A DNA stretch of 64,000 nucleotides, from positions 192,001-256,000 of the IMG/VR virus record IMGVR_UViG_3300021514_000002. One strand, given 5' to 3'. This document shows, in pieces, positions 41,141 to 63,084 of this stretch (positions are counted from its first letter, which is position 1; each line of letters begins with the position of its first letter). Source of the DNA: a virus (lineage: Duplodnaviria > Caudoviricetes). A program made the position numbers and the translations under genes. Below the pieces are notes generated by a model that saw only the letters and a program-made list of their open reading frames with translations, made no database searches and was not told where the DNA came from.

Positions 41141-41890
41141 ATGGAAAAGTATTATGGCTATGTCTATATCTGGAGAGATTCTAAATGCAATATGTATTGC
41201 ATTGGATCGCATTATGGAACCATTGAAGACAGTTACATTACATCTACGGGGTGGATGGTAGCCGCTTATAAGAAACGACCAAACGATTTTAAAATGCGAG
41301 TTTTAGAATATTTAAACGAGGACGATAAATCGCTTTTATTGGATATTGAACAAAAATACTTAGATATGATAAAGCCAGATGAATTAGGGAAGCGTTACTA
41401 TAATCTTAAAAAATATGCATCAGGCGGCGGAAGGATAATTGGTCAAAAAAATAAACAAGACCATTTAGCGGGTGGTTGGAATAGAGGTTTAGATAAAGAA
41501 ATGATGCAGTTGCGTAAAACTGGCAAATTTTGCATTTTAATAGATAATCCAAAAAGGAAAGCACCAGTAAGGCGAAAGAGTGGATGGCAACATACAGAAG
41601 AAACTAAGCAAAAAATATCGAAGGGGCTTAAAGGAAAGCGAGCGTGGAATAAGGGAATATCACTGACTGATATACAGCGGGCTGCATTGTCTGCTTCATT
41701 AAAAGGCAGAACAGCATGGAATAAGGGCAAATCTAGTTCCGTATCTGCGGATAATGGTAAAAGTGGTGCAAAGAAAATGAGTAAAACCGCACAGGGAAGA
41801 AAACGGCATTATAAAGAGGATGGTAGCTGGACATGGATTTATAATGTTAACGGCGAGTGGAGATTAACCCCACCCACCAATAACGATTAA
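41141..41890 (+). mobile_element. Seg-like GIY-YIG homing endonuclease with NUMOD3 motifs
   Basis: YGYVYIWRD..YCIGSH..DSYITS; HTEETKQKISKG and AWNKG repeats. Confidence 0.85.
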
Positions 41891-42185
41891 CTATTCTGTT
41901 GCCAGGTCGTCAAACCCCGAATCGATCACGCCGCGAGGCGAGTTTCTTCAAAAAAAGCGTCATTAGCTGCTTTTAATTTAATTTATGCCATTTACGATGG
42001 TCATCTGTCGTATCATCCACTAGCCGTTCTTAACCACGTCGAATCCATTTCATCCCCGTTGTACGTCGGCTGAGCCTTTTACAGCGTCGTAAGGCTGGAA
42101 GCCGTTCCAGTCCCCTTACCAGTTGTTCGGTGGAGATGTGGGCGTCGAAGCCCAGTCCGCAATTCTTACTAAATTCGCTTCATAT
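41885..42185 (-). ncRNA. ssrA: Circularly permuted (two-piece) tmRNA
   Basis: Acceptor piece ..GGAC TGGGC TTCGAC GCCCA CATCTCC A CCG (3' end 42128) lies upstream of the coding piece GGGGATGAAATGGATTCGAC (5' end 42057). 7-bp acceptor stem with G3:U70 and A73. Tag ORF 41926-41970 encodes (A)ANDAFFEETRLAA. Outer ends approximate. Confidence 0.88.
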
Positions 42186-42195
42186 GATAGTATTC

Positions 42196-42717
42196 TTATT
42201 TATCATCCTTCGTATTATCTTTTGCCCAATCTAAATTAAGGTCTTCGGCATATTCTTCCACGATTTCAATAGGTTCTTCAAATTTAGGAAGATCTTTACA
42301 TTGTAAACTACCAACATCATAAGAAAGTGTTACATGTGGCTTATAGTCAGGAAAATCGTATGTTGCCTCGTGCTCTTTCATTAATTCCTTATGTCTTTTT
42401 GATAAAGCAGTGCAAGTATACTTCAAAACCAAACACATTGCAACCTTTCCATCATCATCAGGTTGCGACGGCCATTTTTCGAAGCCCGATGGTGTACCTT
42501 CTAATATATCATCATACTTACCTTTGGCCTTATAGTCTGGTAAATATTTTCTACTGTATAATAAAGTGGTATGCATTTTTTCGGGTTCTATGGGATTTGG
42601 TATATCATTATCTTTAATAAACTTTTTAATCGCATTGATAGTTTTGTTACTTAGTCTTACTCCAGCATAAGTTCCTTTTTGTATTTTTTCTTCAATAATC
42701 TCGGTCAATTTCATCAC
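42196..42717 (-). CDS. 2H phosphoesterase, Acb1 / T4 gp57B-like
   Basis: Two HxT motifs (MHTTLLYS, PHVTLSY), GTYAG N-terminal motif; leader MKLTEIIEE. Confidence 0.8.
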   Translation of the reverse strand: MMKLTEIIEEKIQKGTYAGVRLSNKTINAIKKFIKDNDIPNPIEPEKMHTTLLYSRKYLPDYKAKGKYDDILEGTPSGFEKWPSQPDDDGKVAMCLVLKYTCTALSKRHKELMKEHEATYDFPDYKPHVTLSYDVGSLQCKDLPKFEEPIEIVEEYAEDLNLDWAKDNTKDDK

Positions 42718-54788: not shown

Positions 54789-56744
54789 TTAATTGTTCTT
54801 AGTATATCGCATATACCATTCTACGGCTAAGCGGACTTGCTTTTGTGTATAACCTTTTTCCATCATACGACTTACGAAATCGTTATGTTTGTCTTCTTCT
54901 TCGGCAGTCGATTTGGTATTAAATGAAATTACTGGAAGAAGTTCTTCTGTATTAGCGAACATCTTCTTCTCGATTACTTCACGTAACTTTTGGTAGCTCT
55001 TCCAATCTGGGCTTTCGCCATTATTGTTCGCTTTTACACGAAGAACAAAACCAACCACTTCATTACGGAAATCTTTCGGATTTGTGATTCCTGCAGGTTT
55101 TTCCATTTTTTCTAATTCAGCATTTAATACTTCGCGATTAAACATACTACCAGTATCAGGATCACGATAATCTTTATCTTGTATCCAGAAGTCAGCGTAT
55201 TGAATATACCGTTCAAATAAATTCTGACCATATTCGTGGTAAGATTCGAGATAAGCTTTTTGTAATTCATCGCCAAGGAATTCAGCATATTTTGGTGCCA
55301 ATGTACCTTTAATAAAGCTGATACGTGCTTCTTCCTCGTCTGATTTAAGTTGTTCTTGTTGAATCTGTTTCCCTAACACGTACATTAAGTGGATTGGATT
55401 CGCAGCAACTTCGTCAGAATCATAATTAAATACTTTAGATAAAATCTTAAATGCGAAACGCGTAGACGAACCATTCATTCCTTCCGAAACACCACCGGGT
55501 ACGTCACGATATTCGTCTAGTGATTTTGCTTGCGGGTCTTTGTCTTTTAGATTTTTACCATCATAGATTTCCATCTTTGAAAATAATTTACTATTTTCAG
55601 GTTCAATTAATCGCGTAAGTACAGAATACTGTGCCATCATTTCAATTGTTCCGGGTGCGCAAATTGCATCTGATAATTCTGAACTAGAAATTAATTTTTT
55701 ATAAATTTCTGCTTCTTCTGTGACACGGAGACAATAAGGGACTTTAACAATATAAACACGGTCTAAGAACGCTTCATTGTTTTTATTGTTGCGGAAAGTT
55801 GTCCATTCTGATTCATTAGAATGTGCAACGATAATGCCTTGGAACGGAATAGCACCAAATTGTTCAGTACCATTATAATGGCCTTCTTGTGTGGCAGTTA
55901 ATAATGGGTGGAGCATTTTAATAGGGGCTTTAAACATTTCAACGAATTCCAAAATACCTTGGGTAGAAACGTTTAAGCCACCTGCCCAATTATATGCATC
56001 TGGGTCATGCTGCTCATGATCTTCTAATTCGCGAATGTTGACCTTACCAACCAAAGATGAAATATCTTGATTATTTTCATCACCAGGTTCTACTTTAGTA
56101 ATACCTACTTGTTTTAAAATCGATGGCCAAACTTTAACTACTTTAAATTTAGAAATATCGCCTTCTGCTTCTTCAAGTCGTTTAACTGCCCAAGGCGACA
56201 TAATGTGTTTGATATAGCGCGGTGAAATATTGTATTCTTCTTTTAAAGTTTTAGCATCGTCAGTAGAATCAAATACATTAAGTGGTGATTCATAGATAGG
56301 AGAAATTTCCCATTCATTTGTTTCATGGTTCAATGCCTTTAATGCAAATACGGGAATATCTTGCATAAGTTCTTTAAGACGTTCTGCTAAGGATGACTTA
56401 CCGCCGCCCACAGGACCGAGTAAGTAAAGGATTTGTTTTGATTCTTCCAAGCCTTGTGCGGCATGGCGAAAAAATGCCACAATCTGTTCAATGGTTTCTT
56501 CCATGCCATAGAAATCGGTAAATGACGGATAAATTTTGATTTTGCGATTAGTAAAGATACGACTTAAACGATCATCTTTGCGGGTATCAACGATAGTGGG
56601 GTCGCCGATTGCCATTAACATCCGTTCTGCTGCTGATGCATAGTAACTTTTATCATTCTTACAACCTTCAAGATATTCTTCAATAGACATCTCTTCGGTT
56701 TGTTTTGTTTCATAACGTTCGTGATAGTTGGTAAATATATTCAT
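54789..56744 (-). CDS. prkA: PrkA/YeaG AAA+ serine kinase-family protein
   Basis: LLGPVGGGKSSLAE, EPGDENNQDISSLVG, EFVEMFKAPIKMLHPLLTATQEG, FLDR. Confidence 0.96.
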   Translation of the reverse strand: MNIFTNYHERYETKQTEEMSIEEYLEGCKNDKSYYASAAERMLMAIGDPTIVDTRKDDRLSRIFTNRKIKIYPSFTDFYGMEETIEQIVAFFRHAAQGLEESKQILYLLGPVGGGKSSLAERLKELMQDIPVFALKALNHETNEWEISPIYESPLNVFDSTDDAKTLKEEYNISPRYIKHIMSPWAVKRLEEAEGDISKFKVVKVWPSILKQVGITKVEPGDENNQDISSLVGKVNIRELEDHEQHDPDAYNWAGGLNVSTQGILEFVEMFKAPIKMLHPLLTATQEGHYNGTEQFGAIPFQGIIVAHSNESEWTTFRNNKNNEAFLDRVYIVKVPYCLRVTEEAEIYKKLISSSELSDAICAPGTIEMMAQYSVLTRLIEPENSKLFSKMEIYDGKNLKDKDPQAKSLDEYRDVPGGVSEGMNGSSTRFAFKILSKVFNYDSDEVAANPIHLMYVLGKQIQQEQLKSDEEEARISFIKGTLAPKYAEFLGDELQKAYLESYHEYGQNLFERYIQYADFWIQDKDYRDPDTGSMFNREVLNAELEKMEKPAGITNPKDFRNEVVGFVLRVKANNNGESPDWKSYQKLREVIEKKMFANTEELLPVISFNTKSTAEEEDKHNDFVSRMMEKGYTQKQVRLAVEWYMRYTKNN

Positions 56745-57408: not shown

Positions 57409-57447
57409 TTTTTATCCTTTATTATTATTTTTTATATTTTTATATAG

Positions 57448-57519
57448 TGGCCTCAGATAGAATCGAACTATCATCTGTAAGTTAGGAACAAACTATGTTA
57501 TCCGTTACACTATGAGGCC
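57448..57519 (-). tRNA. tRNA-Arg(CCT), weak anticodon stem
   Basis: GGCCTCA/TGAGGCC acceptor; T arm GATAG-TTCGATT-CTATC; loop TTCCTAA; two U-U pairs in the anticodon stem; no encoded CCA. Confidence 0.7.
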
Positions 57520-57948: not shown

Positions 57949-58533
57949 TTATCCATTAGAATCATGCAAACGGCTAACTTTTGGTACACGCTTCATTAAA
58001 AATTCCATTTGATCGGCAAGTACTTTACGGTTTTGTAATAACAACCATTCTGCGCGATTTGGAACATATGGAACATAAAGCAATTGCATATTAGTATCAG
58101 CGAGTAACTTATCGTCCTTCGCTTTATTACATCCTGCACATGCAGTTACAACATTCGTCCACTTATTAAGACCACCACGTGATACAGGGTGAATATGATC
58201 ACGAGTTAAACGTGCAGACGAAAACGTAGTTCCACAATACGCGCATAAATTCTGGTCACGACGAAACAATGTCTTGTTCGTTAACGGAACTCTGTTGTAG
58301 TGCTTCATTGCCTTTGGATTAGGATGACCTTTAATAGCAATAATGGTATTAATCGTCAATATGCTTTTGATTCCTGTTGCAGCACAAACACCACCATGGA
58401 GATCAAAATCCACTTCACCCATTGACCATGCAATATTACCTTTAGAGTAATGATAGGCAGAATCCTGGAATGTAATCCATTGTTGTGGGTTACCTGCAAC
58501 ATCAAGTTGTAATATGGTGGGGAATTCGTTCAT
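57949..58533 (-). CDS. HNH endonuclease
   Basis: LFRRDQNLCAYCG..TRDHIHPVSRGG..NVVTACAGCNKAK. Confidence 0.9.
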   Translation of the reverse strand: MNEFPTILQLDVAGNPQQWITFQDSAYHYSKGNIAWSMGEVDFDLHGGVCAATGIKSILTINTIIAIKGHPNPKAMKHYNRVPLTNKTLFRRDQNLCAYCGTTFSSARLTRDHIHPVSRGGLNKWTNVVTACAGCNKAKDDKLLADTNMQLLYVPYVPNRAEWLLLQNRKVLADQMEFLMKRVPKVSRLHDSNG

Positions 58534-59514: not shown

Positions 59515-60054
59515 TTATACCCTATCTTGTAATGCTGCGTGAATCTGCGTAAAATTACTAGGTTTAAACTCCCCATTGATGATTTTATCGGCAACCTGTT
59601 TACTTTTACCATAATTGGAATAAAGTGGTGCCACGGTTGGCAATTCAAGGGTTGCTAACATATTTACCATATCAGCAACCATATCGTCGGTAATGCTATC
59701 ACTTAATGGTGCAAAAAATTCGCGCAAGCGGTCAACTTCATAATCTGCTGCCTTCTTGCCAAAAAATTTATTACCTGCACCAATTTTTTTAGCAAGTGAT
59801 TGCATATATGTAAGATCAACCATGGCATAATATAACCCATGGTTAAGATATGTACCATTTTTTAGTTTGTTAATATTTGTTATCGGCGTAAAACCATTAT
59901 CAAATGGTTTGTTGCAAAGAAGATTGAATAATATATGATGGCTCGCATGTAGCCAAGCAACGGGTGGTCTCGCCTTGTTGTTATTGACGGCTGAAGCCCA
60001 TGATTTGCGGAAAGTAAAGTATTGTTCTTTAGTTTTAAAAATTGATGTAGTCAT
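59515..60054 (-). CDS. Hypothetical protein
   Basis: AGGAG SD. Confidence 0.7.
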   Translation of the reverse strand: MTTSIFKTKEQYFTFRKSWASAVNNNKARPPVAWLHASHHILFNLLCNKPFDNGFTPITNINKLKNGTYLNHGLYYAMVDLTYMQSLAKKIGAGNKFFGKKAADYEVDRLREFFAPLSDSITDDMVADMVNMLATLELPTVAPLYSNYGKSKQVADKIINGEFKPSNFTQIHAALQDRV

Positions 60055-60270
60055 TGTAATTCTCCTATTAAATGTGTTGTATTTGACTATTAAATTTGAT
60101 TTAAATAGAAATACACACGGAGGATCGTGACCACTATGATGGGGATATACCTATGTGTGACTTGTTGACCATTCTTTAGTCATGGGTTTTACCTTTCTAA
60201 TTGTACCAGTGTCAACTGGATCTGTTAATATTGATTGTATCATAATTGTATATATCATCTGCGCAAAAAC

Positions 60271-60344
60271 TGGTGCCCACGGTGGGATTCAAACCCACGT
60301 ACAAGGATTTAGAATCCCCTGCTATATCACTCAGCTACGCGAGC
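60271..60344 (-). tRNA. tRNA with CUA anticodon (amber suppressor-type)
   Basis: GCTCGCG TA GCTG AGTGATA TAGC A GGGGA TTCTAAA TCCTT GTAC GTGGG TTTGAAT CCCAC CGTGGGC A CCA. Confidence 0.85.
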
Positions 60345-60355
60345 ACTTCAAATTA

Positions 60356-60571
60356 TTAATATGGTTTTATCGTGCGTACGGTGCTTTGATGTTGTTTTTC
60401 GGTACGTTTTTTCGCTGCTGCTTTAGCGCGTTTACGTTTTGAACTCGGTTTTTCGTAAAATTCGTTTTTACGGAAATCTTTTAAAGTGTCTTCTTTATCA
60501 ACAGCCTTTTTAAAACGGCGTAATAATGAATCAAAATATTCGTTAGGATGTTTAAGTTTTACTTTTGGCAT
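60356..60571 (-). CDS. rpsU: Ribosomal protein bS21
   Basis: [33 protein letters not shown]; TATAAATA at 60609. Confidence 0.92.
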
Positions 60572-60627
60572 ATTGAATTATTAGTCATTAAGTTAAATGT
60601 TGAACTTCTATTTATAATCAAAAAATT

Positions 60628-61515
60628 AAAGGTTGAGATTATACCTTCTTCATTTGTACCTTCGAGTCATTATCCCATCACCTGCGACAGTTAGGGTTCT
60701 ACTCTTATCCACACCCCCAAGGGGTGTCTACAAACATGACTGCATTTTTTAAAGGGATGCGATACCCTTACCATGATAAACTACTCAAAGTTTTATCTAC
60801 CGTCAATCCTATCGGACTGTTAAGGGTTCGACCCCAACGTGCGACTCTGCTTTAAAACCATAGACCTTGCGGGTTGTCTGGTCACTACATTCACCGAAGT
60901 GTGTAGTATTAAGCCATTTTAATTTATCACTGGAAGTGACTTTGCTTTTTTAAAAGATAGTCGGGATTGAACCGACAGTCTTCTGCTTTAGAGGCAGATG
61001 CCTTACCATTTGGCTATATCATTACCAACGACGATGTGCACTTCCAATAGCTTCATGTCTTTTTAGGACACAAAATACTACACACCGAATGTCTTTCTCC
61101 TACCGGATACTTGACTGTCTTTCAAGACTCATGGGTTTTTACACCCGCGAACCTAACAGGAACATCCGAAGATGTCACCTAAACTGAAACAACGCCCTTG
61201 ATTGTAGTCTCGGACTATTCATTTCTACCCTTTATTCCTTATGGTTCGTGTTTTTGCATGATTGGTGATAACTGCTACACTATTCTTAATTAGCTCGTGT
61301 TCCCTATGTATCCGAAGATAAACACAGGCACGTCAACTAACATTCTTTACCAATCTAACACTTCACCACTAGCACCGCTGCTCTTGTCAACGATGCCACC
61401 CTTTCAGGGGGAATGAGGCTTGCATTAGTTTACCATTTCTGGCGATGGTTAAGTTGGATTACCATCTTTCCCCCTGTTGCCAAGGTTTATATCCCAATGC
61501 GATAATTCTTAAAGT
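60628..61515 (-). ncRNA. Large structured RNA, GOLLD-like, with embedded tRNA-like element
   Basis: No ORF >=60 aa; tandem sigma70 promoters; many UUCG/GNRA-type hairpins; long-range 12-bp and 8-bp helices around a tRNA-like element; 3' hairpin AAGGT-ataatctca-ACCTT. Confidence 0.65.
60952..61023 (-). tRNA. Second CUA-anticodon tRNA-like element
   Basis: D arm GCC-AAATGGTAA-GGC; anticodon arm TCTGC-CTCTAAA-GCAGA; T arm GTCGG..CCGAC; AT-rich acceptor AATGATA/TATCTTT with one mismatch; no CCA. Confidence 0.7.
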
Positions 61516-61521
61516 TCGTGC

Positions 61522-61653
61522 ATTATATAGAAAAATCTACCAATGTCAAGAACTTTTTGAAACTTATAAAAAAATATTTTAAACCTGCGAACAACTTTAA
61601 AACATTCCCCTAATCAGTGGTTGGCATTATACACAGTTTTTCATGTTTGTCAA
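61522..61653 (-). promoter_or_regulatory. Tandem sigma70 promoters upstream of the large RNA
   Basis: TTGACA-16-TATAAT at 61522-61549 and again at 61626-61653. Confidence 0.8.
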
Positions 61654-61690
61654 TACCTTTTTAAAATATTTTTAAAATATTTTAAAAATT

Positions 61691-61882
61691 AAAAAGTCGT
61701 TGATGGTGTAACTAAGAACCACCAACAATATCTATCCTCCATCTTAGTATGGTGCTGCCTTTGGCGGCAACGTACCCCCTCATGATCTTCGGTTCTACGG
61801 GACGAATCCCTCCCCCTACATGTCACACAGGCGTCTAACACGTCACGAACAAGGAAGTGCGCATTCCCTATCGTCCAATCGC
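61691..61882 (-). ncRNA. Putative structured small RNA (~190 nt)
   Basis: Own promoter TTGACT-17-TATAAT (61889-61917); GC-rich hairpins; terminator stem 61699-61726 plus T tail; no credible ORF. Confidence 0.6.
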
Positions 61883-61920
61883 GCGCTGATTATATATCAA
61901 CGAAAATATGAAGTCAATAT

Positions 61921-63084
61921 TTAATTGTATTCGGTTGCGTTTTTTCTAAGAATATACTTTTCGCTTACGCTTTTTAGAAAAACCCGACCAATAGTAGTAT
62001 CACGTCGTTCAACCATAGGCTTAATTACAATACCTTCGCGCATATGCGAGCCAGAAATGGTATCATTCCCGTCAGTATGTTCAGCAACAACTGTTTTACT
62101 ATATTTGCCAATATAAAGAACAGGTACAGTTTCAAGTCCAAGAAATGAGGCAATGGCACGCATCTCTAATGGATCAAGATAACGTCCTTCGCTAGGATTA
62201 CCAATATAGATGTCAAATAAACGAAAACTTGGTGCAATCCCACCATATGTTAAGTCTTGTATCCCAGCACCAAAAATTTCACCAAACAAATAAACTGGTT
62301 CTTGTGTTCCCATTATATATTGTGCATCTTCAACAATAGTAGCACCATCTTTGGTTAATGAATGAAATGCGCGTACATATAAATTGTTGTCATTAGCTTC
62401 ATTAAATTTAAAGGCTAATCCCTTATTACTTAATCCTTTAGATGTTACAATTGGGGTATCGACTTCTGGATGTGTACCCATGCAACACCATGTACCATGA
62501 AGTTTTTCAGTAAACGAAACTTCTTCACCATCTTGGAATATATCTGGGAAGCGTTTTATATTTTCAATATCGTACTTTGGCGTATAACCAAATGCATTAA
62601 AAATTTCACCTGCCATGTGAATTGGAATAGGCGGTTCCCATTTTGTAATACCAAGAAATTCTGTTACGTCCGTACCTTCTGGTGCAAACTCCACATACGA
62701 TGCGTCATCCCTTTCAAGGTCAGGTTTACGTAGACCAAGCATCATACCTTTCGCATCATATCCAATTTTATCAACGTAAGTATGGAATGGATATTCGACC
62801 AAAGGGACGATTAAGCCTTGTGATAATATCCCGCGCAATTTAATCGCCTTAACGCGATTCTTATCTTTACCTGCAAGCTTACCTTCGAGGCCAAGTTCTG
62901 CGATTAACCAATCGGGCACAATAGCAGCTTCTGGAATATAGACACCAAGGTCACCAGTTTTAAACTGTCCCTTTCTTACAATTGAACGATAATCCCCTAC
63001 TCTTGCTAATTCAATAACATCAGCGTTAGGATGTTCTTCAATTTCTAAGCGATATACTTTTACTTCAAACGTTGCCATTTTCAT
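61921..63084 (-). CDS. RNA ligase, DRB0094/Rnl2-like with N-terminal OB-like domain
   Basis: IEEHPNAD.IELA..VRKGQF..GVYIPE, LRGILSQGL, motif I TEKLHGT, FGEIFG, FRLFDI, REGIVIK, KSVS. Confidence 0.9.
   Translation of the reverse strand: MKMATFEVKVYRLEIEEHPNADVIELARVGDYRSIVRKGQFKTGDLGVYIPEAAIVPDWLIAELGLEGKLAGKDKNRVKAIKLRGILSQGLIVPLVEYPFHTYVDKIGYDAKGMMLGLRKPDLERDDASYVEFAPEGTDVTEFLGITKWEPPIPIHMAGEIFNAFGYTPKYDIENIKRFPDIFQDGEEVSFTEKLHGTWCCMGTHPEVDTPIVTSKGLSNKGLAFKFNEANDNNLYVRAFHSLTKDGATIVEDAQYIMGTQEPVYLFGEIFGAGIQDLTYGGIAPSFRLFDIYIGNPSEGRYLDPLEMRAIASFLGLETVPVLYIGKYSKTVVAEHTDGNDTISGSHMREGIVIKPMVERRDTTIGRVFLKSVSEKYILRKNATEYN

Follow-up and report, generated by a model that had tools for sequence, protein, structure and literature searches.

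Two GOLLD cages were solved in 2025, the 14-mer of env-38 (PDB 9MEE) and the 12-mer of Streptococcus agalactiae (PDB 9L0R). The phage locus analysed here resembles GOLLD (Rfam RF02032) in its match to the full model, its conserved 3' domain with a UAAUCUCA loop, its variable linker, its variable 5' domain with a GNRA/GAAA hairpin, and its phage setting with tRNAs nearby. It differs from the solved GOLLDs in belonging to a 364-kb jumbo phage of possible vent origin, in having its own tandem consensus promoters rather than lying within a tRNA array, and in having bS21 and an amber-suppressor tRNA directly downstream. Hallmarks of the GOLLD family are a homo-oligomeric nanocage of 10-14 copies and expression as one long RNA that rises in lytic growth. 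The linker is about 90 nt long and holds a tRNA-like module, whereas that of env-38 is a disordered stretch of 42 nt. ROOL, which likewise is giant, occurs in association with phages, forms cages with the linker inside and often lies near tRNAs, is unrelated in sequence and fold. The suppressor tRNAs of stop-codon-recoded phages, reportedly described by Borges et al. in 2022, share with the present element their phage origin and CUA anticodon; this genome, however, is not TAG-recoded, and the embedded element is without a normal acceptor end. The 3' TLS of plant viruses, mascRNA, and the tRNA-like domain of tmRNA are tRNA mimics that do not decode, and in elements of this type a working acceptor/CCA end is usually retained, or else RNase P cuts the element out. 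The insert has in common with them a conserved L-shaped core inside a larger RNA and differs in that its acceptor end is degraded while its anticodon arm is intact.

GOLLD linkers that hold a tRNA have been published before (PMC12286853, PMC12990946, PMC6582537). The linker faces the cage interior and sometimes contains a tRNA (PMC12286853). For Mycolicibacterium, a review of 2026 refers to Morgado 2020 for a GOLLD with tRNA-Phe in its linker, J13/15, and proposes 'inhibited storage' (PMC12990946). In Mycobacterium, the element embedded in GOLLD was called a pseudo-tRNA and was undetected on a Northern blot (PMC6582537). As in these mycobacterial and Mycolicibacterium RNAs, the locus described here has a tRNA-shaped element in the linker that is predicted to face the cage interior; unlike the mycobacterial GOLLD, it has an amber-reading CUA anticodon, a separate canonical tRNA(CUA) in the phage, and UAG or UUG in close relatives. 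Four points go beyond the literature that could be searched: the insert has an amber anticodon, linker tRNAs have defective acceptors throughout the family, anticodons turn over rapidly among close relatives, and one clade has the gene order GOLLD-bS21-tRNA(CUA). These points represent leads on GOLLD function rather than a new kind of element.

A GOLLD RNA in a jumbo phage

The phage record comprises 363,531 bp with 36% G+C, is estimated to be complete, and contains 45 tRNAs; the window, i.e. the whole 64,000-nt stretch of DNA that was analysed and whose numbering is used below, represents bases 192001-256000. The phage may originate from a hydrothermal-vent metagenome, which contains all sampled words of the record. 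On the minus strand, positions 60630-61088 matched RF02032 from end to end (model 1-416 of 416; 199.3 bits against a gathering score of 150 bits, E 9.5e-55), covering the 3' domain and the linker. The region is therefore an additional member of the known GOLLD family, as the initial annotation, which had proposed a GOLLD-class or new large RNA and had named Rfam searches for GOLLD and ROOL as the check, had anticipated in its first option; ROOL gave no match at E<=1 within 60200-62100 in the same Infernal scan, GOLLD being the matching model. In the cmscan alignment, every consensus helix of the 3' domain was formed, including the long-range helix, with few non-canonical pairs. A related phage locus, L002, has a GOLLD scoring 198 bits and the same gene order as this phage.

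As RF02032 spans only the 3' half of GOLLD, the upstream 430 nt were examined separately. With iterated nhmmer searches, homologues of the 5' domain were identified in 31 phage loci, where they immediately precede a GOLLD 3' domain. For alignment A1, made up of 25 sequences, RNAalifold predicted 39 pairs, 33 of which showed double compensatory changes, and 93.5% of the cells were canonically paired, versus 37-42% with partners slid by 1-3 columns. Homology and covariation place the 5' domain at 61089-61514 (-), including the CCCU-GAAA-GGG hairpin at about 61409-61399. It is followed by the first hairpin of the Rfam model (61029-61088, minus strand), which is composed of an outer and an inner stem with a 9-nt 3' bulge; both stems, basal pairs included, covary between clades when the alignment is read directly. 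The conserved 3' domain ends in the UAAUCUCA hairpin; the terminal hairpin, which is the last of the Rfam model, reads AAGGU-AUAAUCUCA-ACCUU, is followed by UAAUUUUUU and occupies 60629-60647 (-). The hairpins named in the initial annotation can all be read directly in the sequence, among them the terminal AAGGT-ataatctca-ACCTT at 60647-60629.

The upstream promoter P1 (61626-61653) and the proximal promoter P2 (61522-61549), both on the minus strand, each match TTGACA-16-TATAAT at 12/12 consensus positions, in agreement with the tandem pair that had been described (61653-61626 and 61549-61522). Transcription from P2 is predicted to start near 61514, which would give an RNA of about 890 nt. 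An identical arrangement, with a tandem pair of perfect promoters upstream of GOLLD, was found in locus L227, and one perfect promoter apiece precedes GOLLD in L002, L007, L155 and L217.

The initial annotation had made its reading depend on covariation of the helices and on the region not being translated into short ORFs. Compensatory changes were seen in both halves of GOLLD, and no minus-strand ORF of at least 30 aa was found from 60571 to 61689, in keeping with the description of the stretch as ORF-free; the plus strand of the region contains several ORFs of 30-48 aa. These opposite-strand ORFs are what could be cited for the view that the locus is not one RNA at all, i.e. that an ordinary phage tRNA gene lies in a spacer whose hairpins are due to chance or regulation, or that small peptides are encoded. 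The probability of this view is brought close to nil by the match over the full RF02032 model, the covariation of both GOLLD domains, the minus strand free of ORFs of 30 aa or more, and the fold of the 896-nt RNA, with z = -4.25 against dinucleotide shuffles. Because the Rfam match in the 3' part is joined by a homologous, covarying 5' domain, the stretch from about 61514 to 60629 is taken to represent one GOLLD RNA of about 890 nt.

Together, the best explanation of the locus, and one that is very probably correct, is that a jumbo phage encodes a complete GOLLD RNA some 890 nt long, running from about 61514 to 60629 (-) and equipped with a tRNA-shaped module. The tandem pair of consensus sigma-70 promoters would drive its transcription, which probably runs on into bS21 and the canonical amber-suppressor tRNA. 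The RNA would be organised, from 5' to 3', as the 5' domain, a hairpin, a variable linker closed by a 7-8-bp pseudoknot helix, and the 3' domain with the UAAUCUCA hairpin. By homology with the env-38 and Streptococcus agalactiae GOLLDs, it may assemble into a 12-14-mer RNA cage with the linker pointing inward, to which the CUA module would be joined by short single-stranded tethers. The locus represents a clean, self-contained GOLLD with strong promoters of its own.

When the GenBank phage collection was searched by blastn with this region, there were zero matches, and exact-word scans of IMG/VR with two words of 21-22 nt matched solely the L002 contig. No RNA run was found to contain this phage. 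In four metatranscriptomes, parts of 60634-61472 are covered by contigs of Logan assemblies, which come from other organisms, are mostly less than 95% alike, and are assembled from runs rather than being raw reads, so that transcript ends and processing are not readable from them.

The linker-closing helix and the outer inverted repeat

The tRNA-like element had been described in the initial annotation as clamped inside nested helices. Both inverted repeats on which this was based are perfect, at 61039-61046 / 60931-60938 and at 61074-61085 / 60899-60910; the inner, 8-bp part of the clamp stood as a conserved and covarying helix, whereas the outer 12-bp part proved to be clade-specific and not conserved. 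The 5' strand of the inner helix, UGGAAGUG (61039-61046, minus strand), lies within the 3' bulge of the first hairpin, and its 3' strand, CACUUCCA (60931-60938, minus strand), just 3' of the conserved GCAAAG motif. The corresponding 7-mers pair at 7/7 positions in 103 of 119 IMG/VR GOLLD loci, with 43 distinct 7-mers, compared with 17.5% in a mismatched control. The inner repeat is thus a pseudoknot helix by which the linker is closed and which covaries throughout the family. Its pseudoknot nature accounts for its omission from the Rfam model, and it may well be one of the published GOLLD stems.

The 12-bp repeat competes with other structure, its 5' arm (61074-61085, minus strand) overlapping the stems of the first hairpin and its 3' arm (60899-60910, minus strand) the 5' arm of the conserved ACUACACAC-UUCG-GUG..GUAGU hairpin. 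It could be explained as one state of a conformational switch, in which the 12-bp helix stacked on the 8-bp helix would form an alternative fold that unfolds the first and post-linker hairpins, gating cage assembly or exposure of the tRNA module. The minimum-free-energy fold of both the whole RNA and a 213-nt core is indeed the nested one, although it is roughly isoenergetic with the local fold (-61.7 kcal/mol, compared with -48.5 for the local helices of Rfam, to which the clamp duplex adds about -10.5), and since the two folds are near-equal in energy in this phage, there is room for a clade-specific alternative conformer. In addition, a perfect 12-bp inverted repeat within 400 nt was reached in only 5 of 300 shuffles, and the repeat, perfect in this phage only (12/12), is nearly so in L002 and L197 (10-11 of 11 scored positions) and in L227 (11/12). 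Elsewhere in the same subclade, however, complementarity drops to 4-9/11, and much of the 12-bp match is accounted for by the conserved GUAUU / AAUAC motifs. The 12-bp helix also excludes two local helices that are both part of the Rfam consensus and that covary between loci, ACUAC/GUAGU here being CCUUC/GAAGG in L199. With these points weighed, a switch that would operate by way of the modelled alternative fold is improbable.

The tRNA-like insert and linker tRNAs of the family

The CUA tRNA-like element at 60952-61023 (-), 72 nt long, was called by both ARAGORN and the Rfam tRNA model (67.9 bits), which bears out its initial identification. It falls into the unstructured RF02032 columns of about 65-130, corresponding to the variable linker of the GOLLD family, here about 90 nt long. 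The core of the insert is canonical, with D, anticodon and T arms, U8, A14, the D-loop GG, U33, and the T loop UUCAAUC. The acceptor stem, AAUGAUA/UAUCUUU, has a U3.U70 mismatch, 6/7 pairs and a single G-C, and the 3' end consists of a discriminator U followed by AAAAAA, with no CCA, which is not the acceptor/CCA end of a canonical elongator tRNA. An encoded CCA and a G/C-rich acceptor are found in at least 42 of the 45 phage tRNAs, the second tRNA(CUA) among them; 40 end in CCA within the ARAGORN span, and Ala-GGC and Arg-CCU show CCA one base earlier.

The acceptor defect of linker tRNAs is family-wide, as determined from 18 distinct linker tRNAs and, for comparison, the 42 tRNAs that flank GOLLD in these loci, with pairs counted from bracket strings. 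Linker tRNAs had on average 5.83 of 7 acceptor pairs versus 6.67 in flanking tRNAs (p=4e-5) and 1.5 versus 4.0 G-C pairs in the acceptor (p=3e-8); the acceptor stem was fully paired in 17% versus 69%, and CCA was encoded in 11% versus 40% (p=0.034). The combination of a defective acceptor and a missing CCA argues for a tethered tRNA-like module, and the sequence is read here as that of a module in which selection has acted on the L-shape and the anticodon arm and not on the ability to be charged. The true suppressor is more likely the canonical tRNA(CUA) encoded 600 nt downstream. It is most likely, at a confidence near the midpoint, that the insert stays covalently attached as an L-shaped tRNA mimic displaying an amber anticodon arm in the cage. 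Such a module could act as a bait or competitor for a factor that recognises tRNA or the anticodon arm, and would not be matured into a charged suppressor. Against the tethered mimic, RNase P, 3' trimming and the CCA-adding enzyme could yet yield a chargeable tRNA.

Among the GOLLD loci examined, about 140 in number, about 23 had a tRNA in the linker; 6 came from 121 loci picked by a 3'-domain pattern, and a targeted second scan together with the truncated L007 added about 17. Their anticodons include CUA in this phage and in L227, UCA, UAG (three loci), UUG, CUU, UUU and AUG (two each), and AUU, GUU, GUC, GCA and CAU, with four further loops of 6 or 8 nt. The odd ones among them are the stop-reading CUA and UCA, the A34 anticodons AUU and AUG, and the 6- and 8-nt loops. 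In close relatives, the homologous inserts have UAG (L002) or UUG (L199 and L007). The insert of the syntenic L002 differs from that of this phage at 11 positions, 5 of which fall within the 7-nt anticodon loop (CUCUAAA here versus UUUAGAC; p=6e-4). In L227, the CUA anticodon arm is identical to that of this phage despite changes at about eight other tRNA positions, and its recurrence in this second lineage suggests selection on the anticodon itself, with which a decoding role would fit too. The fast change of linker anticodon loops (CUA, UAG, UUG), including stop-reading and non-standard anticodons, offers a handle on function.

The main competitor of the tethered mimic is a stored and released suppressor, in which the insert would be an amber-suppressor precursor that is shielded by the cage from RNase P and 3' processing until the cage opens, and is then excised, receives its CCA and is aminoacylated, the two GOLLD halves being held to each other by the pseudoknot helix. 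The high tRNA score and intact tRNA core would fit such a precursor, as would the CUA arm maintained in this phage and L227; a UAG-interrupted leader 300 nt downstream would offer local use, and the covarying clamp helix could join the halves after excision. On the other hand, the element conserved across relatives is the CCA-encoding canonical tRNA(CUA) 600 nt downstream, homologous inserts in close relatives have UAG or UUG instead of CUA, and the insert stands apart from the other tRNAs of the phage, 45 in all, in having neither CCA nor a G/C-rich acceptor, a defect common to the whole family. In-frame TAG use in the genome is, furthermore, no more than chance gene adjacency. Storage and release is accordingly viewed as rather unlikely, if well worth keeping in mind. 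The acceptor defect, the anticodon turnover and the universally covarying linker helix together favour a tethered tRNA mimic over a tRNA cargo.

UAG-type loops recur among linker tRNAs, with the anticodon UAG in L002, L164 and L192 and an 8-nt UUAG loop in L197; UAG is the complement of CUA, and the two account for about 6 of the about 23 linker tRNAs. Kissing of the embedded loop with the loop of the free suppressor was considered and rejected: UUUAG of L002 complements CUAAA, and this phage, L227 and L007 do not fit. In one metatranscriptome (run X24), several GOLLD variants with a common 3' domain diverge precisely where the linker tRNA has its 3' border (60950-60953), and have different tRNA T-arms there; this suggests that the insert is swapped among GOLLD variants like a cassette. 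Cleavage was rejected as the cause of contig breaks at tRNA borders, which reflect different linker cassettes or loss of similarity instead.

Neighbouring genes and amber codons

The gene for ribosomal protein bS21 (60356-60571, minus strand; Pfam PF01165, 1.2e-15) begins 58 nt past the 3' end of GOLLD, and no promoter or terminator was detected between the two, making co-transcription likely. In relatives, bS21 also lies directly 3' of GOLLD (L002, 10093-10221; L227, 2146-2277; L199, 6153-6275). The linkage of GOLLD and bS21 is clade-specific, and no description of it was found in the literature searched. The canonical tRNA(CUA), which follows at 60271-60344 (-), has G1-C72 in its acceptor stem, A73, and a CCA that is part of the gene; it accompanies GOLLD/bS21 in L002, L227, L006, L007 and L055. 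Near GOLLD, the tRNAs of the phage lie at 60271-60344 and 57447-57519, and a tRNA-Arg(CCU) is encoded downstream of GOLLD. An HNH endonuclease gene (57949-58533, minus strand) is located downstream, an RNA ligase gene (61921-63084, minus strand; PF09414 and a PHA02142 OB domain) upstream, and a PrkA-type kinase gene (54789-56744, minus strand; PF08298, 3.6e-167) flanks the GOLLD/tRNA cluster. The neighbours bS21, the canonical amber suppressor and the RNA ligase are related to translation, and a phage tmRNA lies farther off.

Directly 3' of the canonical tRNA(CUA) is a leader ORF (60054-60258, minus strand) with a single in-frame TAG; on read-through of this TAG, the leader is open in frame into a 179-aa gene at 59515-60054. 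It is conceivable, if quite doubtful, that the caged CUA module forms part of an amber read-through circuit that times read-through of the UAG-gated leader. The roughly 12-14 amber anticodon arms displayed in the cage would then store, titrate or decoy factors acting on the canonical suppressor tRNA, which might be a modification enzyme, a host anticodon nuclease, or the ribosomal A site with bS21. If true, such a circuit would be the first defined function of a GOLLD, and would lie in translational reprogramming.

Genome-wide recoding of TAG was considered and rejected, as the gain in ORF coverage with TAG as a sense codon was no larger than with TGA as sense, and, once stop usage is taken into account, ORF pairs joined in the same frame by TAG were no commoner than pairs joined by TGA or TAA. 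The three largest pairs of this kind, joined by TAG, were likewise dismissed as read-through genes, two of them being separate genes (endonuclease / PurZ-like and AAA ATPase / DprA-like) and the third having a domain on one side only.

Upstream of GOLLD, an unassigned structured region of about 190 nt at 61690-61917 (-) ends in a hairpin and a U-run and has its own promoter, TTGACT-17-TATAAT, at 61917-61889; it had no Rfam match at E<=1. A sequence resembling it lies after the RNA ligase at about 7395-7615 in L002. A permuted two-piece tmRNA is encoded at 41835-42219 (-) (Rfam tmRNA_permuted, 105.8 bits), for which ARAGORN gives the tag AANDAFFEETRLAA; its alpha-proteobacterial type may hint at the host. 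Elsewhere in the genome, a PurZ-like adenylosuccinate synthetase of the 2-aminoadenine pathway (L235, C1:94456-96618, minus strand; phrog_1211, 6.9e-60) follows a homing-type endonuclease, and the phage genome may, judging from this gene, be modified (Z-base). A further protein (L234, C1:140707-142686, minus strand) contains a Cas5fv helical domain (PF20158, 3.4e-61), and one in-frame TAG is all that separates it from an upstream ORF of 315 aa.
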